Virus record (IMG/VR): IMGVR_UViG_3300027798_000036
Source: an uncultured virus (IMG/VR IMGVR_UViG_3300027798_000036)
Lineage: Duplodnaviria > Heunggongvirae > Uroviricota > Caudoviricetes
Strand: one strand, 5' to 3'
Length of the DNA: 64,000 nucleotides
This document shows positions 14,612-51,024 of the stretch, piece after piece (within the stretch, counting starts at the first letter, position 1; each line of letters opens with the position of its first letter). A model generated the notes under the pieces. It was not told the origin of the DNA. It ran no database searches and saw nothing but the letters and a program-made list of their open reading frames with translations. Position numbers and translations under genes: made by a program.

Positions 14612-15157
14612 TTATTTTGCTTGTTCAATGTTATAACTCTCAAGCATTTTGGCATATTCATCGGTATCTCTCCTCCTTATACTTTCTCTCTTTGCTAATT
14701 CTTGAATTTTTATAAGTCCATCTATGATTTGTTCTGGACGTGGAGGACAACCCGGTACATACACATCAACGGGAATTATGTTATCAATACCTTGAAGAAC
14801 GCTATATGTATCAAATATTCCACCAGAACAAGCACAAGCACCAACCGACAATACCCATTTAGGTTCAGCCATTTGGTCATATACCTGTTTGAGCACAGGA
14901 CCCATCTTTTTTGATATAGTACCCATGACCATCAATAAATCTGTTTGTCGTGGAGTAAAAGACAAACGTTCAGAGCCAAATCTAGCCAAATCATAATTGG
15001 CTCCCATTGTCGCCATAAACTCAATTCCGCAACAGGATGTGGCAAAAGGCAAAGGCCAAAGAGAATTTGCTCGAGCCAATCCAATAACTTTATCAAATGA
15101 AGTGGCAAAGAAACCTTGTCCTTCTACTCCTTCGGGTGAATCAACGATTTTTACCAT
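14612..15157 (-). CDS. nuoB: NADH-quinone oxidoreductase subunit B
   Basis: [27 protein letters not shown] and [14 protein letters not shown]2 cluster ligands intact. Confidence 0.97.
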
Positions 15158-18216: not shown

Positions 18217-18531
18217 ATGAATTTATTAGAAGAGTCATTACGAATTAAAAAAATGATGGTTATTGAACAATCATCATCAGACAATTATTTTAAAGAATTC
18301 TCTGAAGGTAATTTTAATAATTTAAAAGAGTTTTTATCAAATAATTCAGAATTTGTAAATAAATTAAAAATAATATTACATCAAGATTCAATTGATTCTA
18401 TTGAATCATCTTTAGTTAAATCAAATAAAACAAATTTAATGAGAGGTATGTCTGACGCTAAAAAATCAAAAGACATGGACTTATATAAGTTTTTAGAAAT
18501 CTTTCTAAAAAATGCCGATGTTTTATATTAA
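18217..18531 (+). CDS. hypothetical protein, MNLLEESLRIKKMM leader
   Basis: leader variant; follows a 44-aa ORF (18081-18215) that has TACTTAT-N4-ATG. Confidence 0.7.
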   Translation: MNLLEESLRIKKMMVIEQSSSDNYFKEFSEGNFNNLKEFLSNNSEFVNKLKIILHQDSIDSIESSLVKSNKTNLMRGMSDAKKSKDMDLYKFLEIFLKNADVLY

Positions 18532-19079
18532 AAGCCTAACTCTGTCTCAATATCAGCCAACTTTGGAAGGACTCTGTCTTTGTCTGACATTATTAATTGG
18601 CTAACATCTACACCCCAATCTATATTAATTTCAGGGTCATTATATATAATACCACCGTCTGCTGATGTCATATATAACTCATCACATTTATAATGGAATA
18701 CAGCAACATCTGAAAGTGTAACAAACCCATGAGCAAATCCTTTTGGAACCAACATCATTTTCATATTGTCTTCAGATAATTTAACACCAAACCATTGTTT
18801 GTAGGTGTCTGATGATTTTCTAAGGTCAACCACAACATCATATACTTCACCTACAATACATCTAACAAGTTTTGCTTGTGGTGCTATCTTTTGAAAGTGA
18901 AGTCCTCTTAAAACTCCTTTAACACTAATTGATTGGTTATCTTGTACAAAGTTTGTATAGATACCTTGTTCCCTGAAAAAACGTTGGTTATAAGTTTCAA
19001 AAAAATACCCTCTGTTATCTTCGTGAACTGTAGGACTAATAACATACAAATCTTTAATTGGTGTTTGTTCTATTTTCAT
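18528..19079 (-). CDS. rmlC: dTDP-4-dehydrorhamnose 3,5-epimerase
   Basis: DNRGYFFETY, QDNQS, GVLRGLHFQ, PKGFAHGF and YKCD motifs. Confidence 0.96.
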   Translation of the reverse strand: MKIEQTPIKDLYVISPTVHEDNRGYFFETYNQRFFREQGIYTNFVQDNQSISVKGVLRGLHFQKIAPQAKLVRCIVGEVYDVVVDLRKSSDTYKQWFGVKLSEDNMKMMLVPKGFAHGFVTLSDVAVFHYKCDELYMTSADGGIIYNDPEINIDWGVDVSQLIMSDKDRVLPKLADIETELGF

Positions 19080-21478
19080 ATTTTACTTAGTGTTTTTAAT
19101 GTTTTTAACAAAGAATCTGGTGTAACAGAAATACTATCAATACCTTCACTAACTAAAAATTCTGCAAAATCAGGAAAATCAGATGGTCCTTGTCCACAAA
19201 TTCCTACCTTAGTGTTAGTTTTTTTTCCAACCTTAATAAGGTGTGATATTGCTCGTTTTACCGCAAGATTTCTCTCATCGTAAATTGAGGATACAAGTGC
19301 TGAATCTCGGTCCAATCCTAAAATCAATTGTGTTAAATCATTGGAACCAATTGAGAATCCATCAATATGTTCTGAAAATTCTTCAGCCATAAAAATATTT
19401 GATGGTAATTCTGCCATCAAATAAACCTCAAGACCTTTTTCACCTCTTTTTAATCCATAAGATTCCATGACTTTATAAACTTTTAATAACTCGTCTATTG
19501 TTCTACAAAAAGGAATCATAACTACAACATTACTAAATCCCATTTTTTCTCTAACTCTTTTGATTGCTTTAATTTCCATACCAAAAGCATCTTTATATTT
19601 TTCAGAATAATATCTTGAGGCACCCCTCCAACCAATCATTGGATTTTCTTCATCTGGTTCAAAATAAATCCCACCCAATAAATTTTTATATTCATTAGAT
19701 TTAAAATCGGAAAGTCTAACAATAACTTTATTGGGATAAAATGCCGCAGCAATTCTTGCAATACCATAACTTAATTTTTTTACAAAGAATGTTTCTTCAT
19801 CTTCATAACCTTTGGTTATTGTATTTATTTGCTCACTTAATTTTTTATCACCAATCTGTTTGTGTTGTAATAATGCCATTGGGTGAACTTTAATGTAATT
19901 ATTAATTATAAATTCTTCTCGTGCTAAACCAACTCCGGCATTTGGTAAACTTGAAAATTTAAATGCTATTTCAGGAGATGCAACATTTAACATTATGGGT
20001 GTTGATATTTTTGGTAATTCTTCCAAATTCGTTTCAATTTTTTCATAATCAATAAAACCATCATAAACAAATCCAACATCTCCTTCTCCACAAGAGACCG
20101 TAACTTTTTGGTGATTTTTTAATATGTCGGTTGCGTTCATTGTTCCAACAATTGCTGGTAATCCCATTTCTCGTGCAACAATTGCTGCGTGACAGGTTCT
20201 ACCACCTTTATTTGTAATGATTGCGGATGCTTTTTTCATTATGGGTTCCCAATCAGGGTCAGTCATATCGGTAACTAAAACACTACCTTCAACAAAGTCA
20301 GAGACATCAAACGTACCGTCACGACCATCTAATGAATACATTATTGTAACTTCTCCATTTGCAATTTTATCTCCGACTGCTCCACCTTTAACAATTGGCG
20401 TTAAATTTTCGGTATTGATTTTATATTCAACAAGTGTATCAGTTTTTTTTCTTGAATGTATTGTTTCGGGTCTGGCTTGAACAATATATAATTCATTGGT
20501 TAAACCATCAATTGCCCATTCCACATCCATAGGACACCAATATCCTTTTAAATCGGAATAATATTTTTCAATTGATGTAACCCATTTTGAGATTTCTAAT
20601 ACTTGATTATCATTGATACAAAAATTGTTTTTATGTTCCTCATCAATATTAATAATTTTGGTTAATTTACCTTGACCCTCACCATAAACCATTTTTTTAT
20701 CTTTGTTACCCAATTTTTTTTCAATAATACAAGAAAATCCTTCTTCCAATAATGGTTTGAATACAATAAATTCGTCAGGAGATACTGAACCTTGAACAAC
20801 CATCTCACCCAACCCATAACTTCCATTTATAATTACAACATCTTTGAATCCACTTTCAGTATCTAATGAAAATGCAACACCAGAAGATGATAAATCAGAA
20901 CGAACCATTTTTTGAACACAAACAGACAATCCAACATCAAAATGGTCATATCCAAAAGATGTTCTATAAGATATTGCTCTATCGGTAAACAGGGAAGCAA
21001 AACAATTTCTTACAGATTCTAAAATGGATTCTGTACCTCTAACGTTTAAAAAAGTTTCTTGTTGACCAGCAAAACTGGCATCAGGTAAATCTTCGGCGGT
21101 TGCAGATGACCTTACAGCAACGTCAGTCATTGTTTGACCATATGTTTCCGATAACTCAAGATACTTTAATTGTATTTCATTTTTTAGTTTTTCAGGAAAA
21201 ACTCCATTTCTGATTAATTCCCTAATTGCAAGACCAGTCTTACGAAGTGCGATTATGTCATTTGGGTTTAAATCTAAGATTAGTTTTCTGATAGATTTAT
21301 CTAATTTATTATGATTAATAAAATCATAATATCCTTTTACGGTTATAGCAAAACCATTTGGAACTTTAATTTTTAAAGTATTAAGATGTTGCAACATTTC
21401 ACCCAAAGATGCATTTTTTCCACCGACTACATGAATGTCTTTTAAAGACACATTGTTTAAATCAAGAATATATTTCAT
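19076..21478 (-). CDS. ppsA: phosphoenolpyruvate synthase (pyruvate, water dikinase)
   Basis: VGGKNASLGEM, RSSATAEDL, GGRTCHAAI (phospho-His), NPMIGWRGASRY, GSNDLTQ, GICGQ. Confidence 0.97.
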   Translation of the reverse strand: MKYILDLNNVSLKDIHVVGGKNASLGEMLQHLNTLKIKVPNGFAITVKGYYDFINHNKLDKSIRKLILDLNPNDIIALRKTGLAIRELIRNGVFPEKLKNEIQLKYLELSETYGQTMTDVAVRSSATAEDLPDASFAGQQETFLNVRGTESILESVRNCFASLFTDRAISYRTSFGYDHFDVGLSVCVQKMVRSDLSSSGVAFSLDTESGFKDVVIINGSYGLGEMVVQGSVSPDEFIVFKPLLEEGFSCIIEKKLGNKDKKMVYGEGQGKLTKIINIDEEHKNNFCINDNQVLEISKWVTSIEKYYSDLKGYWCPMDVEWAIDGLTNELYIVQARPETIHSRKKTDTLVEYKINTENLTPIVKGGAVGDKIANGEVTIMYSLDGRDGTFDVSDFVEGSVLVTDMTDPDWEPIMKKASAIITNKGGRTCHAAIVAREMGLPAIVGTMNATDILKNHQKVTVSCGEGDVGFVYDGFIDYEKIETNLEELPKISTPIMLNVASPEIAFKFSSLPNAGVGLAREEFIINNYIKVHPMALLQHKQIGDKKLSEQINTITKGYEDEETFFVKKLSYGIARIAAAFYPNKVIVRLSDFKSNEYKNLLGGIYFEPDEENPMIGWRGASRYYSEKYKDAFGMEIKAIKRVREKMGFSNVVVMIPFCRTIDELLKVYKVMESYGLKRGEKGLEVYLMAELPSNIFMAEEFSEHIDGFSIGSNDLTQLILGLDRDSALVSSIYDERNLAVKRAISHLIKVGKKTNTKVGICGQGPSDFPDFAEFLVSEGIDSISVTPDSLLKTLKTLSKI

Positions 21479-24421: not shown

Positions 24422-26311
24422 TTATCTTATTAATGTAAAAGTTCCGTTGTATTGAGTGGATTTATTTTCTTTTGATATTATTTCTATTTTGTAGGTGTAT
24501 ACACTACTTGGTGACATTTTACCTAAGTAGGTACCGTCCCATCCTGTATTAATATCAACAGTTTCATACAACTTCTCTCCCCACCTGTTGTAAATTTCCA
24601 TTCTAAAAGAATAACAATTTGAAATAAAGGGTTGAAAAGTGTTGTTGATAGCCGGGCCTTCTGGATTTGGGGTAAAAACATCGGGTATATACACCTGTAA
24701 ATCACAAAGGGAATCTAAAATAGTAAATTTTCTAATAACTGAATCGCATCCGTTTATATTTTGAATAGTATCTTTAAACACCCCTGATATTTTAAATGTT
24801 AAATTTTCATAAGAAAATTCCTCATCATCACATTTGCTAAATGTTTTATTAATATACTGTACTGTGGATTTGTAAAAATGAATAAATACATAAATGTTTG
24901 AGTCACATCCAGAGGTAGTTTGATTCCACTTGGTGAATTGTGTGTCATTACTGTACTTTTGTCCATCAAAAATAATCGGGTCATTACATGAATATAATTT
25001 AACTGTATCAAAATATGATAATCTATAGAGAGTGTCTATAAAGTAATTTACACACAAATTCTCTGTTTCTGTTTTATAAACAAAAGATTTTTTAGATGGG
25101 GGTTCGATGCTAATGCATTTAACATGTGGATTTAAATAGTAATTCACAGTATCTTTTGTTACTATTGTTAGATACAAAGGGTTTAAGGTGTTATCTAACT
25201 TATATGTACCATCTTGACTATAGTATTTTTCATTTACATTTATAGAATCCCCTTTACATAAGGTCCTTATCTTAAAAGATATATCTTGAGTTTCTATACA
25301 GGTATTGTTATTCAAATCAACCCAAAAATCGATGCCTGGATCTGGGTAGAAGTATTTTTGTTGAAATTTTTTATCTGAGGTTATGTAGTAATCGTGAACC
25401 TCCCCCGCCATAATGTCGATAACATTCGAGTCGATAAACGTAAGATAACTTACAGCCCATGAATTTGGGTCTCTATAACAATATCCATTTTCACATAAAT
25501 ACAAAAAATGTAAGCCGTCACATTGTCCTGAAATAGCAACTGCTGGGAAAGGTAAGTTAATCTTTCTCAGGACACGAATTGAATCAACTGAATAATTAAA
25601 AGTAAAAACATTTCCATCCTTATCTAGGGCTGATACAAATGCAGTTGTTGCTTTGATATCTACAATAGATTTTAATGCTAATCTGGATATTTTTGGATTT
25701 TTAATGAATTCACCCCACCCTCCTACATTTATAAAATCAATGTACCCATTAGAATTTAAAGCAAAAAACTTCCCACCCGCTCCCATAGCAACACGTTTTA
25801 CGTTATTAACCCCGGTGATTTGTACAACCTCTTTTATGTAACTTGTGGAATTTGTCGGAGATGTCACCCATAGACTACCATCTTTTTTCACAAAAGCCAC
25901 CCCGTTTATTGCGGCATCACAAAATGATACATTACTTATCACTCCGATAGGGTATTGAATTTCACCCCACACATATCCACTGTCATTTGTTTTAATTATT
26001 CCCATAAAGTATCCACCAGAATGGTATTTTACTTCTGAAAGGTTATATGTCCATGTAGGTGATGTAATCACCGAACGCCAACCCCTTTTTATTAAACCTG
26101 TCATACTGTATCCCCACCCGTAAAGTTTTCTTTCGGATCCACATATCATAAATCCACCGTAGGAGTACGAACTTAAATTTGTTGGTTTATACCACAAACG
26201 CCCTCCGAAACCATCACCAACAATACTATTTTGAGACCAACAAACATTTGTAAAAAATATTAAAATATAAGGTATGATATATTTTGTCATAATTTGTTTA
26301 TTGTTGCTCAT
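24422..26311 (-). CDS. secreted protein with RCC1-like propeller and gliding-motility-associated C-terminal domain (T9SS type B CTD); start may be 26290
   Basis: signal peptide; C-terminal YIPDVFTPN...IYNRWGEKLY...WDGT...YTYKI...GTFTLIR. Confidence 0.85.
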   Translation of the reverse strand: MSNNKQIMTKYIIPYILIFFTNVCWSQNSIVGDGFGGRLWYKPTNLSSYSYGGFMICGSERKLYGWGYSMTGLIKRGWRSVITSPTWTYNLSEVKYHSGGYFMGIIKTNDSGYVWGEIQYPIGVISNVSFCDAAINGVAFVKKDGSLWVTSPTNSTSYIKEVVQITGVNNVKRVAMGAGGKFFALNSNGYIDFINVGGWGEFIKNPKISRLALKSIVDIKATTAFVSALDKDGNVFTFNYSVDSIRVLRKINLPFPAVAISGQCDGLHFLYLCENGYCYRDPNSWAVSYLTFIDSNVIDIMAGEVHDYYITSDKKFQQKYFYPDPGIDFWVDLNNNTCIETQDISFKIRTLCKGDSINVNEKYYSQDGTYKLDNTLNPLYLTIVTKDTVNYYLNPHVKCISIEPPSKKSFVYKTETENLCVNYFIDTLYRLSYFDTVKLYSCNDPIIFDGQKYSNDTQFTKWNQTTSGCDSNIYVFIHFYKSTVQYINKTFSKCDDEEFSYENLTFKISGVFKDTIQNINGCDSVIRKFTILDSLCDLQVYIPDVFTPNPEGPAINNTFQPFISNCYSFRMEIYNRWGEKLYETVDINTGWDGTYLGKMSPSSVYTYKIEIISKENKSTQYNGTFTLIR

Positions 26312-28381: not shown

Positions 28382-31300
28382 TTACCTTAGTAATGTAAAA
28401 GTTCCGTTGTATTGAAATACTTTATCTTCAAGTGACGTTACTATCATTTTATATACATATACACCATCTGGTGCAGGTTGTCCTTTATAATTACCATCCC
28501 ATCCTTTTGTAAGGTCGGTTGTTTCATACATTTTTTCACCCCAACGATTAAAGATTAACATTTCATATGTTTTGTTATTAATAACATACGGTCTGAATGT
28601 ATTGTTTTCATTTGGTCCAGCACCATCAGGTGTAAATGCGTCAGGTACAAAGATAATGATATCAGGACCAATAACAACCTTTTTCATTGAAGAATCTTTA
28701 CATCCTTTATCTGTGGTAACAATTAACTTAATCCAATATGTCCCTGTATCCTTTCCAAATACAATGTTTGAGTTCTTAAGTGTATCACTACCAATCTTAT
28801 ATGATTTACCCCAAGTCCAATTGTGTTTCATGTTGGTGACAAATGGATTCTGACTAACACTTGATGTGTTAATAGTTTTGAACTTAGGTAATGCCACCGT
28901 TGTTTTGTACAATGGGTCGGTATTAAACACAACACTTGGTTTTGGATAAACATTAACGGTTTGTGTTATTGTTCTATTACATTGTTTTTTACCTTCTACG
29001 TTTGTAATTGATAAAGTTATTTGGTATTGTCCTTGTGTTGAGAACAAGTAAGGAACTGAACTGTTATTAGTGGAGATACTATTAGTATTTACATACCAAT
29101 TATATGTTAACAAAGAAGGGTTAATTCCTTTTCTTTCGGTGGGTGTAAAAGTGGTATTCAGTGGTTCACATCCATTTTGATATGTAAACATTGGGTCGGG
29201 ATATTGGTGAATATAAACTCTTACGGTATCAAAAGGGTTTGGACATACATTTTTTGCAACACTCCAATCAACTCTAACATCAACATAACCTAACGCAGTA
29301 TCAGTAATTGTTGGGACATACTTTTTATTCATGGTTGGTCCAAATGTTGCCATTGGTGTCCAATTAAATGTTCCACCATTTAAGTATTGGGTATCAATTT
29401 TTAATGTAACTGTGTCAAACTCACATACTTCAATTGGTTTAACAAATTTAACTTTTGGTATATTAACAATTGTGATTTTAGCGTATTCAGTATCTTGACA
29501 GTTATATGGTGTAAGACCAATCATCATCCATTTGTATGGACCTGGTACATAACCTGTTAGAGTTGTTGTTCCGTTGAAGAATCTACCATCAGGATAACTC
29601 ACAATGGTTCCACCTTTATTACTTACAGCTAATGTTAACACATCCAAAGGAATTGCGGATGCACATATTGTAGTATCTCTAACTCTCAAGTCCGATGTAT
29701 CATGAACTATGATATTAAAACTATCTATTTTTACACAACCAAATTGTGAACTTACATATTTTATGTTATACACACCAGGTCCTGTAGATGTTTTGAATAA
29801 TCCTGTAGAAATGTTTGTAGTTACTTTTGGATGACTCCTATCACCATTTACATCTTGAACGTAAATTGTTCCTCCTGTTGGTTTAACACCATTAACGGTT
29901 ATGTAGTCAAACATATTAACATTAATACCTGAGTTCACACAATAATCAGGAATTGTTTTAATAATAACTGTTGGTTCTGCAATTATATTTACGTCAACAG
30001 TATCGGTACTTTGACATCCTGTAACTAAATCTCTAACAATAAGTTTGAATGTGTATTTTCCTTGATATTCATCTTGAAACGATAAACCAAAGTTAAATTT
30101 GATGTTTGGTGTTACACCACCTGAAATGTCATACAATAATTTTGATGTATCAATTCCTGATGGAGCTCTTACCACATCCCATCTCATATAAACACCTGAT
30201 TTGGTTGCTGGTTTAGTTCTTAACACGTCCATCATCATTGACCCAATATCCTGACAAATAGTTTTTGGAACTAATGTAATCATTGGTGTACCATAAATTG
30301 TTTGTGTTGTTGAATCCATGTTGGAACAACTATTTGTGTCTGTGAACTTCACATACATTTTGGTGGTATAATTGTTTCCACCTTGTAATTTACTATTGTC
30401 AAGTAAAGTTGTGTTGAACAAAAATCTTCCATTATAAGGAATATATCCGTAAGTTATATTACCTGATTTTTTTAACTTATCTCCATTCCAAACATCATAC
30501 GTTCCAAGATTATGAGGTTTAACTAAGAATAGTTCCGACCATATACTACCATAAGAATAACATTGAGGTTTTAGTGGTTTTGGACTCCAACTAATTTTTG
30601 GTAATGGTTTAACCCTCACAAACATTGTATCCATATCTTCACAAGAACGTCCATTTTGAGTTAGAACAGTCTTTAATGTAAACATATAGGTTAATTTTGT
30701 TATATCAGATTTTAGCTTATAGGTTGATAAATTACCCAATCCGCCCCAAGTATATGTAGGACTTAATAGTGGTGGTCTATGACTGGCAGTCAAGGTGAAT
30801 GTGTCTTTATCGCATATTGCTTGGTTTAGTCCTGCATTTGTTATTACAGTATCGTTTACAAAAACTGTTGCGGTATCATATTTTACACACTTCCACTTTG
30901 TTTCCATTACCTGTACCCAATAGATGCCTTTTAAATTGGTTTTAAATATTCGTGTTGTATCACCAGTGCTCCACATATATTTAACCGTGTCTGAATTTTG
31001 AGCATCAAATGTAGCAATTTCATAAGTACATATTTGTTGGTCAATTCCAATTCCCACCACTGGTAATGGTTTCTTATAAATTGTAGTTGTATCATAGAAA
31101 ATACATCCATCCCCATCAGTAATTTTTAGACGAACTGTAGAGTCACGATTAATATTAGGAATACTTAAAGTTTGAAAAGTATCTCCTAAAATATGCTCTT
31201 CAGATTTCCAAGCCGCTTTAGACCCTGTATCTTTCACTACTCTGGTCCAATAGTATTTGAATGGTGAATTACCAAACAATATGTTAGCATTTAACTTCAT

Positions 31301-32923
31301 TGTAGTACCAAAACACGCAAAAGTGTCAGCATCAGCCATAACAACCTGAGGTGGATTTGGAATAATAACAGTATCCCTATATATGGTAGGACAGTTATCT
31401 GAGTTGTTTACAGTATGTACAATAATGTATTTTCCACCACGGTAAAATGTCATAGTATCTGATTTTTTTGTACTATAAAATATCTCAGACTTGCCCAAGC
31501 TATCTCTTACACTCCACTTAAATTGAGGAGCACCTTTAAAGGATAAACTAACAGATGCCGCCATGGCGAATTTACCACATTTTAAATTTGTGTATTTGCG
31601 AATACTAAATGCTCGTGGATTTACTTTAACCTTAAAACCACGAATGGCTTGAGAAGGTTTTGGACAGTGTTCATCTGTTACTGTTACCGTGAAAGCATAA
31701 GAAATATCTGACGCCATACCCACAGAAGGTGTCCATTCAAAATAAGCCCATGCTTTTCTTTTTTCGGGCCAATCCTTCCTATTTGCCAAGGTAAACTTAG
31801 CGCCAGGAATACCTTTATTCCATTTTAAATTTGTTGTATCTGGAATTGTTTGATTCGGAGTAAATGTTTCATCATCCGATTCTACCTTGAATTTTAGTGT
31901 TTCACCTTCACAGACTTTCCAATTAAACGGACCTAACAATGTTGGTGCTTTGTTGTAACCACAATCATCTTTCACCCACAATTGCATATCTCTACGTGTT
32001 TTACCAACAATGATATAACTGCCTGTGGCACTGTCTTTTCGCCATTCTGTAATTACAATCACCGCAATTGCAACTTCATCACATTTCGTGGGTGTTAAGA
32101 TAATATCACCAGAACTTGTATCAAAGAATAATCCTCTTGGAGGGTTCAGTCCGGGTTTAGGAGCACAGTTAATTGAAGTTGGTGGAATGCAATATGGCGT
32201 CATGAAATAACGAGGAGTAAATGGCGAAGAATAAGATACAGAATTGTTGGGCAAAGTGTTAATACCATTTGTTAAACTGTATGAAAAAGAATCATAATCA
32301 ACAGTATCAATTGCACCATTATTAAAATAATATGCCTGATTACAACAAAGAAAGGCGATGGGAGCATTACTTAGTGTTGGAGAAGAGTTACACTTGTTTG
32401 TAGTCTTCTTTATATTACAGATGTTAATCATACAGGTAGTATAAAAACCTTGACTGGCGGGTCCAGTAGTAATGGCACCATTTCTACAACACTGTCCAAT
32501 GTAAAATGTCACTTCACAACATGTAGATTTATTGAGATAACCACTTAATGGACTTGTATTAAAATCTACCGTAACTTCATAGGTATGTTCTTCAATTCCC
32601 TCACCAGTACCATAAGTATTTTGAGGAGAACAAGGCGAACTCGCTGTTGAACATCGTGGCGTAACGTCTTTAATTCCCGTTCTGGTAATAGATAAAAGAC
32701 TACTTCCGCATCCATTTCCACCATTGGTTCCTGCAAATACACCAAATTCAGGAGAATTGAATGGGACACCTCTACAATCTCTATAAATTTTTGCTGTGAT
32801 TTTATATTTTCCGTTACCCAAACATTTATAAGACATATCTCCACCCATCATGTGAGTGGATGTGGAAATGTTTGATAACAAAAACGTTAGAATAAAAAGT
32901 AATAATGGTAAAAGTTTTTTCAT
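28382..32923 (-). CDS. large secreted adhesin-like protein with Ig/PKD-like repeats and T9SS type B CTD
   Basis: signal peptide, THMMGGDMSY...YRDC N-terminus; C-terminal FVPDAFTPD...FNRWGE...WDG...DGVYVY...GTFTLLR. Confidence 0.9.
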   Translation of the reverse strand: MKKLLPLLLFILTFLLSNISTSTHMMGGDMSYKCLGNGKYKITAKIYRDCRGVPFNSPEFGVFAGTNGGNGCGSSLLSITRTGIKDVTPRCSTASSPCSPQNTYGTGEGIEEHTYEVTVDFNTSPLSGYLNKSTCCEVTFYIGQCCRNGAITTGPASQGFYTTCMINICNIKKTTNKCNSSPTLSNAPIAFLCCNQAYYFNNGAIDTVDYDSFSYSLTNGINTLPNNSVSYSSPFTPRYFMTPYCIPPTSINCAPKPGLNPPRGLFFDTSSGDIILTPTKCDEVAIAVIVITEWRKDSATGSYIIVGKTRRDMQLWVKDDCGYNKAPTLLGPFNWKVCEGETLKFKVESDDETFTPNQTIPDTTNLKWNKGIPGAKFTLANRKDWPEKRKAWAYFEWTPSVGMASDISYAFTVTVTDEHCPKPSQAIRGFKVKVNPRAFSIRKYTNLKCGKFAMAASVSLSFKGAPQFKWSVRDSLGKSEIFYSTKKSDTMTFYRGGKYIIVHTVNNSDNCPTIYRDTVIIPNPPQVVMADADTFACFGTTMKLNANILFGNSPFKYYWTRVVKDTGSKAAWKSEEHILGDTFQTLSIPNINRDSTVRLKITDGDGCIFYDTTTIYKKPLPVVGIGIDQQICTYEIATFDAQNSDTVKYMWSTGDTTRIFKTNLKGIYWVQVMETKWKCVKYDTATVFVNDTVITNAGLNQAICDKDTFTLTASHRPPLLSPTYTWGGLGNLSTYKLKSDITKLTYMFTLKTVLTQNGRSCEDMDTMFVRVKPLPKISWSPKPLKPQCYSYGSIWSELFLVKPHNLGTYDVWNGDKLKKSGNITYGYIPYNGRFLFNTTLLDNSKLQGGNNYTTKMYVKFTDTNSCSNMDSTTQTIYGTPMITLVPKTICQDIGSMMMDVLRTKPATKSGVYMRWDVVRAPSGIDTSKLLYDISGGVTPNIKFNFGLSFQDEYQGKYTFKLIVRDLVTGCQSTDTVDVNIIAEPTVIIKTIPDYCVNSGINVNMFDYITVNGVKPTGGTIYVQDVNGDRSHPKVTTNISTGLFKTSTGPGVYNIKYVSSQFGCVKIDSFNIIVHDTSDLRVRDTTICASAIPLDVLTLAVSNKGGTIVSYPDGRFFNGTTTLTGYVPGPYKWMMIGLTPYNCQDTEYAKITIVNIPKVKFVKPIEVCEFDTVTLKIDTQYLNGGTFNWTPMATFGPTMNKKYVPTITDTALGYVDVRVDWSVAKNVCPNPFDTVRVYIHQYPDPMFTYQNGCEPLNTTFTPTERKGINPSLLTYNWYVNTNSISTNNSSVPYLFSTQGQYQITLSITNVEGKKQCNRTITQTVNVYPKPSVVFNTDPLYKTTVALPKFKTINTSSVSQNPFVTNMKHNWTWGKSYKIGSDTLKNSNIVFGKDTGTYWIKLIVTTDKGCKDSSMKKVVIGPDIIIFVPDAFTPDGAGPNENNTFRPYVINNKTYEMLIFNRWGEKMYETTDLTKGWDGNYKGQPAPDGVYVYKMIVTSLEDKVFQYNGTFTLLR

Positions 32924-32977
32924 CTCTATAAGTATAGACAATATTAATGATAAAAAGTATTCTTGCTGTAAAAAAAT

Positions 32978-34322: not shown

Positions 34323-35348
34323 TTATTTTTCAGATAACAAGAATTTATTTGATATTGCTTTGAAAGAAATTGTGTTATCCAAAGAACGAACCACAACACC
34401 TTCACGTTCTGCAAGTTTGTTTAAACGAGATTTGTCTTCAGCCAATTTTACCATCCCTTCAACCGTTTCAGGTAATAAGAATGCTACATCTAAAATTGGT
34501 ACAGATAATAATTCTAACTCATCCAATAAGATTAAGAAGTCATTAATGGTCATTCTTGTTTGTGTATCAATATCAAACCCATTGAAGAAATGAACTGTTT
34601 GTCCTTTGATTTTGTATGGGTTACCTTGGATACCTTCACCAATCAACTCACCTTGTAAACAAATGTTTCCTTTGATTTTGAATTTGTTTTCCAAGTCAAG
34701 TTCACGGGCAACTTTCCAAAAAGTATTTCCTTCAGTTTCAAGTAATTCCAAATTACGAGAACATACACCAAACTCACCCTCATTCATATAAAATGTTGCA
34801 GATGAACCATCCAACTTTTCAGTCATGTAAAACTGATGCTCAGATGTTAGTTTATATTCTTCATACTCCTTAACCAAGTTCTGAACCCTTTCTTCATCTG
34901 TCTTACGTAAGAAAGATGGGAACCCACCTTTTACTTTACCAGATAGTTCGGCAGGAATTGGTGGTTCGTATTTCACAATACCCAACATTTCAGTTACATC
35001 CAAACCTTCAGGTAAATCGTGTCCTGTTGCAAATTGTGTGATTGGAACAACACTGATTGGAAGAATAAGTCCTTGAGATAATTGACCACGAAGTCTAATT
35101 GTCTTCAATCTGAAACCTTCTTGGTCACCCATTTTCTTGTAAGATGATTTACGTAAAAACTCAAACTCTTCCTTGATAGGTAAGAATGAATCAATCTCAC
35201 AATACACCACACTGTTTCCCACTTTATGTTCAACATCTTTGGCCACAACAACATTCCAACCACCTACAATGGCTATTTCAATTTTGTCTGCACCTTCAAT
35301 AGGTCGGATGTCAGTAATTTTTCTAATAGTTGCTAATTTTCTTTCCAT
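34323..35348 (-). CDS. RNA ligase, DRB0094/Rnl2-like family
   Basis: RKLATIRKI..IEGADKIE, KTDEERVQN, TEKLDGSS, GELIG, EGVVV and FKAIS. Confidence 0.92.
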   Translation of the reverse strand: MERKLATIRKITDIRPIEGADKIEIAIVGGWNVVVAKDVEHKVGNSVVYCEIDSFLPIKEEFEFLRKSSYKKMGDQEGFRLKTIRLRGQLSQGLILPISVVPITQFATGHDLPEGLDVTEMLGIVKYEPPIPAELSGKVKGGFPSFLRKTDEERVQNLVKEYEEYKLTSEHQFYMTEKLDGSSATFYMNEGEFGVCSRNLELLETEGNTFWKVARELDLENKFKIKGNICLQGELIGEGIQGNPYKIKGQTVHFFNGFDIDTQTRMTINDFLILLDELELLSVPILDVAFLLPETVEGMVKLAEDKSRLNKLAEREGVVVRSLDNTISFKAISNKFLLSEK

Positions 35349-35352
35349 ATTT

Positions 35353-35535
35353 TTAATCTTTTCCAAAAGTATAACCAATCATAAATCCGTGTATCCAATA
35401 TGTCTTTTCATTGTCATCACCTTGATTATCCATCTCATCCCAAGTTTGTTCCGCCAATTTTTGAACTTTGAACTTTGTGTCCTTTCTTTCTTCTACGGCT
35501 TCGGGACTCAAATCAACTAACGGTTTATTTTTCAT
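35353..35535 (-). CDS. hypothetical protein
   Basis: TATCTTTG-N4-ATG. Confidence 0.6.
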   Translation of the reverse strand: MKNKPLVDLSPEAVEERKDTKFKVQKLAEQTWDEMDNQGDDNEKTYWIHGFMIGYTFGKD

Positions 35536-36126: not shown

Positions 36127-37878
36127 TTATTTAGTTACCACAACTTGGTAAACAATATTGTTATTACCACCTTGTATGTGGAAGAAATACAATCCACTAT
36201 TCAAATCTGATAAGTTTACATTTACAAAGTTATTGCCTGAAATAACACTCATTGTTGTCATTTTTCTAACCATTCTGCCGTTTAAATCCGTCACGAATAC
36301 ATCAGCGTTGAATGATTGTGTTGATGTGAATTCAACTGTATATTCACCGTTTGTTGGGTTAGGATAAGCACTTACTGATTTAACTTTACCAACTACTTTA
36401 ACTTGAGTTACACCATAAAAACCTAAAACACCATATTCAAAGTTTGGTAGTATGTTTAAATCTGCTGGTCTAAAATCAGGTGCTGTAAAGTTATTTGTAT
36501 TAACTAAGAAACCTGGTTTGAAAGTATTTGTATCAATTGTATTATTGTTTATTGAATTACGAATCCAACTATCCAATACGGTTACATTACTACCTGAACT
36601 AACCTCAGCCAAACCTGTATTGGTTGTTCCGACAGGTGCGGATGCTTTAACACCATAGATGTAGTTGTTTCTAAACAAATTATTTTTGTCTGAAATTGTT
36701 TTTGATTTAACACCTGAGTTAACCAATACTGAATCACCATCAAACATCACAAAGTTTCTATAACCCATAAAGATTGAGTTAACAATACTCAAACGAGAGT
36801 TTCTACGAATTCTTATTCCACGTCTGAACGCTCCTTTTTGTGTTATTGATAATTGAGACCAAGTCATACCTGCAGGTATTGGACCAACACAAGTCATGTT
36901 TGAAAATACTGCTGTTGTTAAAGGTAATCTTCCCGAACCTGATGCGTCATTGTCCGACTCAAATGTTTCTGAAGTTGATGCTCCTGATGATGAGTTCCAA
37001 GACAAATCATAGTAAGATGAATCTTTAAAAGAAATACCGAACTGAACTGCTCCACGATATCCAAAGTCAGTATCAAAATCGTCATCAGTTGTTTTGAATG
37101 AAATCAAATGTTTACAATTAACTGTTCCACCAAACCATTCATATGAATCATCACCTGAGAATGATACCTGTACATTATTGATAGTTGTGTTTCTTCCAAC
37201 AGAACAAAATGTTAATCCGTTGATTTCTTTGTTTGGTTCAAATGCAACACCACCAAATTCAATTCTTAAATTATTAATTGAACCGCTGTTGTCATCATCA
37301 TTGATTCCACCGTGTTTTGCTAATGTGTTATCCAAAGCCACGTTATTGAAACCTTCCATTTGAATGTCAGTTCCCTGATTGTTAATTGCTTTACCACACA
37401 ACACTAATCCACCCCAATCCCCTCTGTCACGAGAACCAATTGGTTTTGCTGATGTTAAAACAACTGGATTAGTTACCGTTCCATCAATCTGAATGTAACC
37501 ACCTCTTTCAACAACAATTGTTGCGTATTGTTTTGGTGATGATTGTGAGTTTGATTGTCCACGAATAATTGTACCAGCAGGGATAATTAATTTACCACCG
37601 TTTCTAACCACAACCAAACTACGTAACAAATAAACCTTTGATGGGTCCAATGTAATAGTTGCTGTGATGTTAACTTCACCTGTTGGATTAGTCAAAGTGT
37701 TTGTATCACTTACAGTTCCATAGGTTGTATTTTTAGGGTCCCATTGGGTCCAACTCTTTGTCCAATCTTTTGATGAGTTTGATTCAAGAGCTCCGATGTG
37801 ATTTACTTTCTCAAAGAATTGAGCGTTTGCCGTTAAACACATAACAGCCGATAATAGAATGAATACTATTTTTTTCAT
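36127..37878 (-). CDS. secreted beta-helix-type protein with T9SS type A C-terminal sorting domain
   Basis: signal peptide ANA-Q; GDWGGL...EINGLT...DDSYEWFGG...DDDFDTDFGY; C-terminal AYPNPT...DLNGR...LNSGLYF. Confidence 0.88.
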   Translation of the reverse strand: MKKIVFILLSAVMCLTANAQFFEKVNHIGALESNSSKDWTKSWTQWDPKNTTYGTVSDTNTLTNPTGEVNITATITLDPSKVYLLRSLVVVRNGGKLIIPAGTIIRGQSNSQSSPKQYATIVVERGGYIQIDGTVTNPVVLTSAKPIGSRDRGDWGGLVLCGKAINNQGTDIQMEGFNNVALDNTLAKHGGINDDDNSGSINNLRIEFGGVAFEPNKEINGLTFCSVGRNTTINNVQVSFSGDDSYEWFGGTVNCKHLISFKTTDDDFDTDFGYRGAVQFGISFKDSSYYDLSWNSSSGASTSETFESDNDASGSGRLPLTTAVFSNMTCVGPIPAGMTWSQLSITQKGAFRRGIRIRRNSRLSIVNSIFMGYRNFVMFDGDSVLVNSGVKSKTISDKNNLFRNNYIYGVKASAPVGTTNTGLAEVSSGSNVTVLDSWIRNSINNNTIDTNTFKPGFLVNTNNFTAPDFRPADLNILPNFEYGVLGFYGVTQVKVVGKVKSVSAYPNPTNGEYTVEFTSTQSFNADVFVTDLNGRMVRKMTTMSVISGNNFVNVNLSDLNSGLYFFHIQGGNNNIVYQVVVTK

Positions 37879-38661: not shown

Positions 38662-38856
38662 TTACCAACTATCTATATCTGTAAAATCTTTTTCTACTTT
38701 AGCCGCATGACTATAAACTCTTATCCCTACACCAATACCATTTGGTGTGAACGTAAAGTCAAATAAACCATATTCACCATAAACCTTTTTGATGGCATCT
38801 TGCCACTCTTTGATTTCGGTTTCTTCTTTTTCATTTAATTCAAATTTTGTAATCAT
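38662..38856 (-). CDS. small phage protein
   Basis: FTFTPNGIG...DFTDIDSW. Confidence 0.7.
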   Translation of the reverse strand: MITKFELNEKEETEIKEWQDAIKKVYGEYGLFDFTFTPNGIGVGIRVYSHAAKVEKDFTDIDSW

Positions 38857-39257
38857 AATTTTACCTCAAACCTATCTTTCATTATTTGTAATTTATCCTC
38901 AGGGACATTGTGTTGATTAACACCACCGTGTCTGTTCTCCACTATGATACTGAACACACGATAACCGTATTGGTTTGCCAATTCATAATAAGCATCCATT
39001 TCCCATGCTTGAGTGAATGTATTAGATACAACAATGTCTGAGTTATCCAAACCAGCTGTAACATGGTTGTTAATCATTGCAAGTTCAATTTGTGATTGAC
39101 ACCATTCATGAGCCTTTCTTAATTTGGTTGGGTCAAACTTGTATTCACCTTCAACCATGAAAAAGGTATCGGTCTCAAAGTGAGAATCACCAAGTTGTTT
39201 TGCCAATGTGGACTTACCTGCGCCAGGGATTCCACGTAATAGATATAAATTTTTCAT
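38853..39257 (-). CDS. P-loop kinase (AAA_33, polynucleotide-kinase-like)
   Basis: RGIPGAGKST, VVSNTFT and HNVP. Confidence 0.88.
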   Translation of the reverse strand: MKNLYLLRGIPGAGKSTLAKQLGDSHFETDTFFMVEGEYKFDPTKLRKAHEWCQSQIELAMINNHVTAGLDNSDIVVSNTFTQAWEMDAYYELANQYGYRVFSIIVENRHGGVNQHNVPEDKLQIMKDRFEVKL

Positions 39258-39431
39258 ATTAGTCCATGTCTTTTTCTTGGGAACCATTGGTTGTTGGACC
39301 AACTAACCCAGCCTTAATACAATCATGCATACCCTCTTCAAGGTCTTTGATTTTCTTTTCCATTGGTCTGTACCACTCAAAATAAGTTAGCACTATACCA
39401 ATCCACGTACCGATTACTATATATAATAATG

Positions 39432-40472
39432 TCATAATTTTTTAAATTCAGGTTTTAATATATTCCATATCAATTTATCATAAGGTTTTCCATCCCACAT
39501 TGCAAACATGACCGCTCTATAAGGTGGATGTCCGTTTTCCATAACATGTTGAGCAAACTCTTTCTTGGTTGGTTCAACTTCTCTATCACTATACTTTCCA
39601 TATCGGAAGTTATAGTGAGCCTTTCCACAATATTCATCTACTTGAAGGTATCCATAACTCAAATTACCAGCATATCCTTTTACTTTAGCATAGAACTCAT
39701 CAGGTACATCCTTCAAGAACTCATTGATGTCACCACCATTAGCCAAGAACTCCCATACACCAGTGGTAGATACATTTGTCATTATCTTATGAAGACGCAA
39801 ATATTCCTCACCTTTGATTTTCATTCGGTCTCCGTTAGAGAAACGAACAACGAACCCTTCAGTGTTCTGTTCAACTTTACCCTTTAATTCGGAATAATCC
39901 CTAATTCCATCGTATTTTTTAACAATATCAAACCCTTCATACAATTCATTGTGTGGGAGTTCTTCACCAGTCTCAGTGTTGATTACACCAAGTAAAACCA
40001 AACGCTCCTCACCATTGTAGTCAACCACGATTCTGTTCTCAGGATAGATTATTTCAAACAAATAAGTGAACCTATCTACTATGATGTCTTGGTAGTTGTG
40101 CTTTATAGCAAAGTCGGTCATCCACTTTGATTGGTCAGAAGTAAATGAACCACGAGTGGCACATATCATCTCACCATTGTACTTGAACATGATTCCCAAT
40201 GAACCATCCATCTTATCAAATACCTCAAACTCAGATGTTGCTACGTGTTTGTTCTCCTCTAAGTTGAAGAACTTTTTGAATGGTCGGGCAACAACATTAC
40301 CTCTGTTGTCTGTAACCAATCCACGACATGTCAATGTAACATCATCCCATAACTCACCGAACTGAACGTTAGGTGTATAGTTCCATATGGATAATGGCAA
40401 ACTACGGTGTGTCTGTTTGAACAACAAACCCCTCTTTGTGTAGTCGTCTAATGTAACCATTGGAAATTTCAT
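39432..40472 (-). CDS. T4 Rnl1-like RNA ligase
   Basis: CRGLV, RPFKKFFN, KMDGSL, TRGSF, EGFVV and KIKGEEY. Confidence 0.92.
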   Translation of the reverse strand: MKFPMVTLDDYTKRGLLFKQTHRSLPLSIWNYTPNVQFGELWDDVTLTCRGLVTDNRGNVVARPFKKFFNLEENKHVATSEFEVFDKMDGSLGIMFKYNGEMICATRGSFTSDQSKWMTDFAIKHNYQDIIVDRFTYLFEIIYPENRIVVDYNGEERLVLLGVINTETGEELPHNELYEGFDIVKKYDGIRDYSELKGKVEQNTEGFVVRFSNGDRMKIKGEEYLRLHKIMTNVSTTGVWEFLANGGDINEFLKDVPDEFYAKVKGYAGNLSYGYLQVDEYCGKAHYNFRYGKYSDREVEPTKKEFAQHVMENGHPPYRAVMFAMWDGKPYDKLIWNILKPEFKKL

Positions 40473-40514
40473 AGTACAAAGATACAATTAATTTTTGATT
40501 ATTTCATTTTTATT

Positions 40515-43156: not shown

Positions 43157-43193
43157 AAAAAAAAGAAACCCCAAATAATTTCTTATTCGGGGT
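43157..43193 (-). terminator. intrinsic terminator ending the large ncRNA
   Basis: GACCCCGAATAA-GAAA-TTATTTGGGGTT followed by a U tract. Confidence 0.8.
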
Positions 43194-43224
43194 CGGACAT
43201 AGGATACTATCCTATGTGGGGTTT

Positions 43225-44057
43225 TGGCTAAAACGATGAGATTACTCGTTTAGTTGACCTGTCTTTTGTAGAGATTATACCCGACTAAGGTTTCCTCTCG
43301 TATCCACTAATGTTGCCATCAGTATCAAGTCATCACCGATTGTTTACGACAATCACACGTTTCGGTCAAACTTACTCAACTATTACTTGCCTCTATAGAA
43401 TCTTGCGAACTCTCTAAACCCGTGCCCAGGTACTAGGACTTTCTTAGTCAAAACTGAAGGACTTGGGGTCCTGTCAATTTCCTTGTTGGTATTTCTACCC
43501 AAGGAATTAGGTGACTTTCAGTTTAACCGCTCAGAGACTTTTCCTTTTCTGTAGTTTATTTTTTCATAATAAATCAACATAGTGAGTGTGATGAAAGATG
43601 AGCTCTGAGGTGGATAGCTTCTCTTTTGAAGAAGTAAATACCACTCACCTTTCTGTAATCCGCCAAGACTACGACTTATCTTGATATCGTTGTGTCACCA
43701 CTTGGATACCTGTGATAAATTGGTGACCTAGCCCTACATCCACTTGGCGGCGGAGTCGAACCATTCCCTTTACCTTTTCCTATTGATGTCTCCATCTCAA
43801 CCCTGACACCTCACGTGGTCAAAATAAATAACTTCTCTCAGCTGTTGCCCATAAGAAATCATTCGTAGGTAATTTGTTTAGTTGTGAGCCACTTTCGTGA
43901 CACCGAGATATTTGTACCGTTGAGTACTTTCTCCCCTATAGTCCCGTTACCGGGGTTATCTTAATCGACGCTAAACCGCCGAATACAAACCAAACTTCAA
44001 TTTAAGGGGGTGAAGTTGGCGTTTCAAAGAACGTTTTGAGATGTTATTCTCAATTGT
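43225..44057 (-). ncRNA. large structured ncRNA, GOLLD-like
   Basis: ~800 nt without an ORF, GC-elevated, many hairpins with GNRA loops; 3' part (GUUGAGUAAG, UAGUGGAUA, AUAAUC, GUAAUCUCA) resembles GOLLD as recalled. Confidence 0.7.
44022..44032 (-). promoter_or_regulatory. boxA-like antitermination element GTTCTTTGAAA
   Basis: rrn-type boxA sequence about 25 nt after the predicted start, preceded by a small hairpin. Confidence 0.6.
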
Positions 44058-44061
44058 TTCA

Positions 44062-44093
44062 CAAAGTTAAGACTATTTTTTCAAACTGTCAAA
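44062..44093 (-). promoter_or_regulatory. Bacteroidota primary-sigma promoter (-33 TTTG / -7 TAACTTTG)
   Basis: TTTG-N20-TAACTTTG facing the ncRNA. Confidence 0.75.
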
Positions 44094-44184
44094 TAAACTT
44101 TGTTTTTTTTATTTGGTAAGTAATAAATATATCCTTATTTACCAAAGTTATAAAAACATAACATCTTTTTTTTCAGTTGTCAAA

Positions 44185-49837: not shown

Positions 49838-50006
49838 CAGTGTCAACATCTTTCTTATGCACTTTGCGATATACTTCCTTGAAACATTCGGAACATAATT
49901 GTCCCGCACCTTCTACATAAGTCTTGCGGGAATCAACATGGTCATTGATTGAATGACCAGTCTCACATCCACAACTTATACATTTCTCAATATTAATTTT
50001 GTCCAT
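49824..50006 (-). CDS. small zinc-finger-like protein
   Basis: CISC...YVEGAGQLCSEC. Confidence 0.7.
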   Translation of the reverse strand: MDKINIEKCISCGCETGHSINDHVDSRKTYVEGAGQLCSECFKEVYRKVHKKDVDTDEKP

Positions 50007-51024
50007 CATAAAAGTTTGCAAGTTTTAAACTATCCAAAATTACTTTAACAATTCTGTATGGGTCAGCGTTTGAACCTGGTCTTCTATCTTCCAAATAACC
50101 AGTCCAATTAGTTGCGGTAGACAAAGGAACTCTAATTGACGCTCCACGGTCAGCAATACCCCAAGAGAATTTATCCATTGATTGTGTCTCGTGTTTACCT
50201 GTTAATCTAAACTCATTACCCGAACCATAATTTTTAATATGAACATCATGTCTTGATTCAAATGCATTAAAAATAGATTTGAAGTATTCTTCTCCGCCTT
50301 CACTTCTCATTCTTTCATTGGAGAAATTACAGTGCATCCCTGAACCATTCCAATCACCATGTCTTATTGGTTTTGGGTTCAAATCAATAATCAAGTCATA
50401 ATACTCAGCAGTTTTGTACAACAAATAACGAGAAATCCATAAGTCATCAGATGATTTAATAGCCCCTTTGGAAAATAGTTGGTATTCCCATTGACCTAAT
50501 AACACTTCAGCATTTACGCCAGTAATATCCAATCCAGCATTTAGACATAATTGTAAGTGAGTATCCACAAATTCTCTTTGTGCAACATTTTTTGTACCTA
50601 TACCACAATAATACTCACCCTGTGGTGCTGGAAATCCATACTTGGGGAATCCAGCGATGTTACCATCTTTAGTCTTTAAGACATACTCTTGTTCAAATCC
50701 AAACCATACTGAATCATCATCTAAACCTATTTCAGCTCTTAAATTAGATTTATGTTCATTACCAGTCATTGGGTCCATTACTTCACACAAAACATATGTG
50801 GTTGGGTATTGAGTAATGTCAAATGAAGGATAAAGTCTTACAGGTCTAAGAATACAATCTGAAAAATTACCTTCCGCTTGTTTAGTTGATGAACCATCAA
50901 AAGACCACAATGGTAAATCTTCTAATTGAAATTCCATTGGGAGGTCAAGGATTTTAATCTTGCTTCTCAAGTTTGGTTCAGGTGTATACCCGTCTAACCA
51001 AATATATTCTAATTTTGTTTTCAT
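49993..51024 (-). CDS. glnII: glutamine synthetase type II
   Basis: EYIWLDG, FDGSST, GFEQEY, NAEV..GQWEYQ, WNGSGMH, RLTGKHET, DRGASIR and EDRRP. Confidence 0.95.
   Translation of the reverse strand: MKTKLEYIWLDGYTPEPNLRSKIKILDLPMEFQLEDLPLWSFDGSSTKQAEGNFSDCILRPVRLYPSFDITQYPTTYVLCEVMDPMTGNEHKSNLRAEIGLDDDSVWFGFEQEYVLKTKDGNIAGFPKYGFPAPQGEYYCGIGTKNVAQREFVDTHLQLCLNAGLDITGVNAEVLLGQWEYQLFSKGAIKSSDDLWISRYLLYKTAEYYDLIIDLNPKPIRHGDWNGSGMHCNFSNERMRSEGGEEYFKSIFNAFESRHDVHIKNYGSGNEFRLTGKHETQSMDKFSWGIADRGASIRVPLSTATNWTGYLEDRRPGSNADPYRIVKVILDSLKLANFYDGQN

Follow-up and report, generated by a model that had tools for sequence, protein, structure and literature searches.

The window examined here is a stretch of 64,000 nucleotides from an uncultured virus of the Caudoviricetes (IMG/VR record IMGVR_UViG_3300027798_000036), with a G+C content of 32%. 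Between a NUDIX gene and a gene with a T5orf172 domain it carries a non-coding RNA unit on the minus strand. The main promoter of this unit (44062..44093) consists of TTTG (44093-44090), a 20-nt spacer and TAACTTTG (44069-44062), a form (TTTG / 20 nt / TAnnTTTG) that we take to be the Bacteroidota -33/-7 consensus. A second, tandem promoter may lie upstream (44143..44184), where TTTG (44184-44181) and TAACTTTG (44150-44143) are 30 nt apart; the spacing is imperfect and the assignment uncertain, and an alternative -7 word with one mismatch and canonical spacing is present at 44160-44153. Tandem promoters are often found in homologues. Downstream of the main promoter there is a short hairpin in a boxB-like position (44036..44053), which is optional and variable and often absent in homologues, and then the boxA-like word GTTCTTTGAAA (44022..44032). 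The word GTTCTTTGA occurs only once in the 64-kb window.

The RNA that follows opens with a hairpin bearing a C-rich loop (43989..44020), shorter than in relatives, and continues through a 5' domain (43654..43981) outside the Rfam model and a 3' domain (43233..43653) that aligns to positions 1-416 of RF02032 and contains an AU-rich linker at about 43590-43545 with no embedded tRNA. An extra hairpin past the 3' end (43198..43216) is restricted to this sub-lineage, with a hairpin of the same shape and other sequence in L031/L058. The unit is closed by an intrinsic terminator (43157..43194), namely a hairpin with a 12-bp stem (43194-43167) followed by a U-tract, and a hairpin plus U-tract was seen after the GOLLD 3' end in all 14 homologues inspected by eye. 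The conserved core measures 749 nt (43981-43233) and the predicted primary transcript about 900 nt.

Our analysis revealed that the element belongs to the GOLLD family. RF02032 matches over its whole length at 43653-43233 (minus strand) with 309.6 bits against a cut-off of 150 (E 1e-87), and it is the sole Rfam match at cut-off in the window; between 43100 and 44250 eight further matches to other families were all far under cut-off. An earlier reading of this DNA, made from the letters alone, had named GOLLD and suggested an Rfam search, which bore the identity out; a new class of large RNA is ruled out by the same match. The promoter, short hairpin, boxA-like word and terminator that the sequence-only reading had pointed to were each located at the coordinates given above, and all features named in it proved, when checked by position, to be on the minus strand in the place it had assigned. 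The seven stems it listed are all present between 43955 and 43307. Its description of the region as ORF-free, structured sequence also holds, the longest ATG-started frame in 43157-44062 having 39 codons and the folding z-score being -4.19, with none of 20 shuffled sequences folding as well. Covariation, another check suggested there, was observed as two-sided changes at 80 of 169 predicted pairs among 24 full-length homologues, which are kin, so that these changes lend support short of a formal covariation test.

The 5' domain is variable but structured, being conserved and covarying in the 24 homologues with covarying stems in the 5' half, and the total length falls within the GOLLD range of about 700-850 nt. 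The C-rich loop (44012-44003) is complementary to a conserved AGGG segment after the third hairpin (43940-43931, minus strand), with which it likely pairs, and this probable pseudoknot would carry the fold farther upstream than its usual 5' start. By eye, the first two hairpins of the 5' domain resemble the start of the env-38 GOLLD in the available part of the supplement (PMC12286853). A tRNA T-arm-like GGTTCGA word (43762-43752, minus strand) is nearly invariant in the 5' domain of the 24 homologues. The locus is non-coding and phage-borne, and an identical locus is found in a 233-kb IMG/VR record. Based on family membership, the RNA should form a homo-oligomeric cage (PMC12990946, as far as available). 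Solved GOLLD cages contain 12-14 copies, the env-38 RNA forming a 14-mer (PDB 9MEE; PMC12286853) and that of S. agalactiae a 12-mer (PMC12990946).

As in known GOLLD RNAs, there is a full-length match to the conserved 3' domain, a variable 5' domain and a disordered AU-rich linker, and the RNA is phage-borne and lake-derived. In contrast to known examples, it stands alone as a unit, flanked by a promoter and a terminator of its own. No tRNA gene was found in the 64-kb window, so the tRNA adjacency that is typical of GOLLD, yet not obligatory, is not seen here; no tRNA is embedded and the nearest phage tRNA gene is about 68 kb away. The boxA-like leader is a further difference, as it goes unmentioned in the available parts of PMC12286853 and PMC12990946.

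The carrier fits a bS21-encoding Bacteroidota jumbo phage of about 295 kb. The nearest record (G001, which served together with G002 as genomic context for the window phage) has 294,914 bp, 29 tRNA matches, a tmRNA and a bS21 gene, and the bS21 gene is present in all four related phage records. The bS21 Bacteroidetes phages described previously (PMC9723584) are alike in size (about 295 kb), G+C content (32%), bS21, many tRNAs and freshwater origin, while GOLLD, tmRNA, ncRNA and antitermination go unmentioned in the available main text of that study. A blastn search for cultured relatives of the window RNA in 50,697 phage records gave no match. None of the four phage records encodes NusB. A NusG-family gene exceeded the cut-off in only one of them (G005:C1:183263-183574, plus strand, 45.9 bits) and not in the nearest record.

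Protein domains were assigned by scanning 84 of the 87 ORFs of the window. Two RNA ligases and an AAA_33 kinase-like gene (34323-35378, 38853-39302 and 39432-40487, minus strand), 3-9 kb downstream of GOLLD, likely constitute an RNA repair set. Three proteins (24425-26311, 28385-32941 and 36127-37878, minus strand) carry type IX secretion sorting tails (CHU_C, Por_Secre_tail) and are possibly exported by the host system. Metabolic genes on the minus strand comprise a NuoB-like Oxidored_q6 (14615-15157), a dTDP-sugar epimerase (18531-19079), a PEP synthase/PPDK-like enzyme (19079-21478) and a glutamine synthetase (49993-51024).

Conservation of the boxA-like word was assessed in GOLLD loci collected with a 16-nt 5' anchor. 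This yielded 103 viral loci, of which 98 remained after removal of four chance matches and one short locus, representing 51 distinct leaders. Behind the promoter, 40 of the 51 carry GTTCTTTGAAA exactly, 43 within one mismatch and 46 within two, and in the remaining five its place is taken by GTTCTTACA or GTTCTTTAC; a -7 word precedes the motif in 50/51. Exact matches occurred in 0.02% of shuffled leaders, and none of 44 upstream control stretches came within one mismatch. Among cluster representatives less than 80% alike the motif is exact in 12/19. Its flanks are poorly conserved, and among correctly placed motifs the distance from promoter to boxA ranges from 5 to 66 nt, as expected of a site acting at the RNA level.

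A second set was retrieved through a 3' motif (73 loci, reduced to 41 distinct ones after dropping those with less than 1100 nt of upstream sequence); in the search of phage records the corresponding query matched only two uncultured records. Promoter and motif occur together in 33 of the 34 loci with a Bacteroidota-type promoter, and in the 34th the motif is present farther from the promoter. The seven remaining viral loci of this set, which are of other, non-Bacteroidota types, all lack the motif in their GOLLD leaders. Twenty loci were checked against Rfam and 19 matched at cut-off, the exception being L165. Likewise, no boxA-like word was found in the leaders of seven GOLLDs from cultured alphaproteobacterial and mycobacterial phages, nor in that of a 642-kb phage whose GOLLD has a Bacteroidota-type promoter. 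These motif-less leaders rule out boxA as a general GOLLD feature and indicate that GOLLD can be made without it; the boxA leader is a strategy of this lineage and not of the RNA family.

Previously unannotated GOLLDs were recorded in the cultured phages Phaeobacter MD18, Roseobacter DSS3P8, Sinorhizobium Phosso, Mesorhizobium Cp1R7A-A1 and Mycobacterium Estes and Bongo, with that of Erythrobacter L02 just under cut-off (L434-L440). Such cultured phages provide tractable systems for GOLLD function. In the Mesorhizobium phage a tRNA cluster is preceded at about 70 nt by a boxA-like word (L438:6-15, plus strand), which sits at the edge of the sequence retrieved for this locus.

Alternatively, the motif could belong to the GOLLD structure itself, with the conserved AAAGGGA segment or a CAAAAG loop as its pairing partner. 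In folds of single sequences the motif is often paired (mean unpaired 0.31-0.52), in some cases with AAAGGGA, but it is unpaired in the consensus fold, in which the window's own leader is misaligned, and its best duplex in the RNA body was no better than that of shuffled words in 12/12 loci. The motif also varies without compensating change, and in 47 of the 51 leaders the C-rich loop is the better partner of the AAAGGGA segment by energy comparison. Consensus fold, duplex energies and leader comparison thus give no support for base-pairing between motif and RNA body. Furthermore, the same motif heads tmRNA, tRNAs and another RNA (see below), and the solved env-38 construct has no such word at its start in the available parts of PMC12286853. 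We consider this explanation very improbable.

The same word is found in host rRNA operons. A 16S probe identified 121 genome loci, 64 of which had a leader of at least 200 nt (two labelled as non-Bacteroidota included). Exact GTTCTTTGA is located at -230..-60 in 19 of these 64, and most of the others have the close variants GTTCATTG, GTTCTTTA, GTTCATAG or GTTCATTA. Host 16S genes are preceded by the same promoter form as the GOLLD unit, and their boxA words sit downstream of it by tens of nucleotides or more. In addition, a boxA-like word directly precedes the nusB start codon in 11/13 Bacteroidota genomes, as well as in G006 (14 long-type NusB loci from 61 genomes, with the start found in 13; L349, L391-L404), and the variant GTTCTTACA is common to host nusB starts and four phage leaders. 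Words adjoining nusB starts are as expected for Nus autoregulation, judging from the available part of PMC5725501, and suggest that NusB may be autoregulated in Bacteroidota. The B. subtilis word AUGAUCUUUGAAA, similar to that of the phages, was reported to bind NusB by NMR (PMC13753749, in the part available). Our literature search on boxA and NusB found no description of boxA for the phylum Bacteroidota.

Within host genomes the promoter and motif lie within 32 nt of each other at ten sites in five genomes; one of these sites is before nusB, and no tRNA or tmRNA was called at any of them. The motif is missing from host tmRNA genes (0/5), which rules out boxA as a trait of host stable-RNA genes at large and implies that untranslated RNAs of this size need no such signal in the host.

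Use of the motif by the phages was surveyed in G001, G003, G004 and G005, where each of 133 intergenic promoter-like sites was assigned to a class according to the feature following it, and four upstream tandem promoter sites were counted separately. The motif follows 11 of the 133 promoters, and all 11 are ahead of RNA genes, corresponding to 4/4 for GOLLD, 4/4 for tmRNA and 3/11 for tRNA units (11/19 RNA-gene promoters; eight of the 11 promoters leading tRNAs lack it). It was not found after any of the 81 promoters ahead of protein genes or the 29 ahead of unassigned features. Fisher's test of RNA against protein genes gave p = 5e-10, a value that overstates independence because the four phages are related and motif variants were chosen after viewing the leaders. 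One promoter-like site of G001 with GTTCTTTAA (126108) lies inside an ORF and was filtered from the survey. In the phage tmRNA genes (G001:127613-128021 and G003:135615-136024, both plus strand; G004 234432; G005 40136) the mature 5' end comes 6-7 nt after boxA, a site that host tmRNA genes lack. In G001 a cluster of 12 tRNAs likewise has the motif 28 nt ahead of it, with no promoter adjacent.

The combination of promoter and motif led to an uncatalogued conserved RNA of 120-160 nt, with a closing stem of varying sequence, at 26 viral loci in related phages (L442-L467). It has its own promoter and boxA in 21 of the 26, and in 22 a GOLLD starts within 600 nt; in L157, L158, L160, L164 and L205 some 1100-1200 nt separate it from the GOLLD 3' end downstream. 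No Rfam match at cut-off was obtained in the loci scanned, and the core motif of this RNA was not found in G001, G003, G004 or G005.

In many leaders just 5-7 nt separate the motif from the -7 word, so that the transcript practically begins with it. This placement would also suit a downstream promoter element acting in DNA, or a site bound by a transcription factor of the phage, with the likeness to boxA being secondary; one of the four records (G005) does encode a NusG-family protein. However, the 5-66 nt spacing with optional hairpins in between, the placement of the word tens of nucleotides or more downstream in host rrn leaders, and the presence of the motif within tRNA clusters, with no promoter next to it (G001 140107, G003 165528), all speak against such an element, and we regard it as improbable.

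Transcription of the unit in nature is supported by lake metatranscriptomes. Among the 22 runs listed, 18 are freshwater metatranscriptomes that hold 75-91% of the RNA's words, and contigs from all four runs examined cover GOLLD, so that the transcript looked for since the sequence-only reading is at hand as metatranscriptome contigs spanning 43224-44063. In run X1 a single contig corresponds to 43224-44063 with no differences, meeting adapter at 44063, and its 3' continuation belongs to a related strain. Pieces from X13 span 43225-44036 and those from X12 43227-43993, and X3 contigs cover the flanks too. Contigs of this kind report presence, while strand, level and true ends cannot be read from them; the end of the X1 contig at 44063 is a weak hint that agrees with the predicted promoter. 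In X1 and X13 the flanking genes are without RNA contigs, which was not counted as evidence of level, since the runs were found with the GOLLD gene.

On these grounds we propose that expression of this GOLLD resembles that of an rRNA operon. Host RNA polymerase would start near 44057-44062, and the nascent boxA, within the first 40 nt of the transcript, would bind host NusB:S10, taken to be the host's because the phage encodes no NusB. NusA, NusG and probably SuhB and S4 would then join to give an rrn-type elongation complex, whose known composition is NusA/B/E/G, SuhB and S4 (PMC10250234, PMC12360218, PMC13753749, in the parts available). Such a complex may shield about 850 untranslated bases from Rho, aid co-transcriptional folding and stop at the intrinsic terminator, and the same switch would serve the phage tmRNA and some tRNA units. 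We consider this sequence of events likely, with Nus binding and antitermination at the phage boxA inferred from sequence. The rrn-like expression put forward in the sequence-only reading thus stands as regards motif conservation, identity with host 16S leaders and restriction to RNA genes, whereas the signal turned out not to be general to GOLLD.

A different role for NusB:S10 has also to be weighed, in which the motif binds it mainly as an aid to folding or speed, or is retained as a sponge titrating NusB:S10 from host rRNA operons, and Rho protection is not the point. E. coli rRNA has been reported to be intrinsically Rho-resistant, with the Nus complex serving mainly for folding (PMC5725501, in the part available), and host tmRNA manages without the motif. 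Because the X1 contig includes the motif and reaches 44063, the accumulated RNA may retain it. However, X12 and X13 pieces of the window strain end lower, at 43993 and 44036. The motif is also placed before tmRNA and tRNA units. Leaders of tmRNA and tRNA are normally cut off, and a transcription signal therefore fits better than a lasting sponge. We see this role as unlikely, though less so than the promoter-element and structural explanations.

The proposed rRNA-like loading can be compared with several known systems. Bacterial rrn leaders share with the GOLLD leader strong, often tandem promoters, an optional 5' hairpin, the host boxA word and a long untranslated structured RNA (PMC10250234, PMC13753749, as far as available). 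They differ in that here a phage RNA gene is concerned, and the phage tmRNA too, while the tmRNA genes of five host genomes are without the site; moreover, no boxC or leader-trailer helix was identified in the phage unit, in which the end-to-end pairing of the MFE structure is absent from the centroid. With lambda nut (boxA-boxB plus N protein) it would share phage use of host NusB:S10 via boxA, but the hairpin here precedes boxA, as in the rrn order, and the targets are RNA genes and not protein operons. Since this hairpin is optional and not conserved, it does not constitute an N-type boxB. The boxA sites before CRISPR arrays and suhB (available parts of PMC13753749 and PMC5725501) are likewise outside rrn operons; those are host loci of gammaproteobacteria, whereas ours is viral and from Bacteroidota. 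Our literature search found no report of boxA on GOLLD or on phage RNA genes, the 2009 GOLLD paper, some supplements of PMC12286853 and most subscription journals being outside its reach. The RNA family is known, and the boxA leader is the new part.

Beyond this locus, we somewhat favor the view that bS21-type Bacteroidota jumbo phages have a genome-wide 'rRNA-mode', in which the host boxA marks their long ncRNA genes while protein genes go without it, and Nus factors would be recruited without an N-type protein. Genes so marked would be GOLLD, tmRNA, some of the tRNA units and at least one uncatalogued RNA of 120-160 nt. That the cage assists translation late in infection, by holding ribosomes or tRNA or by protecting them, is a tentative idea that we rate as rather less probable than not; it draws on context, namely bS21, tmRNA, about 29 tRNAs, a nearby pair of RNA ligases and the report of a ribosome pull-down.

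The job of GOLLD is a long-open question, and its structure came from protein-free RNA in vitro. The boxA signal leaves the function of the cage unrevealed, yet a loading signal of the host rRNA type offers a first handle on GOLLD production in the cell, for which a simple mutation is available. If the proposal is true, promoter plus boxA would be a marker for further phage RNAs, one uncatalogued RNA having already been exposed in this way, and abundant boxA RNA could divert NusB:S10 from host rRNA synthesis. Nus/boxA biology would then reach beyond rRNA, CRISPR arrays and lambda and take in a viral ncRNA programme, and our findings suggest that phages may borrow the host rRNA transcription machinery for long RNA genes.
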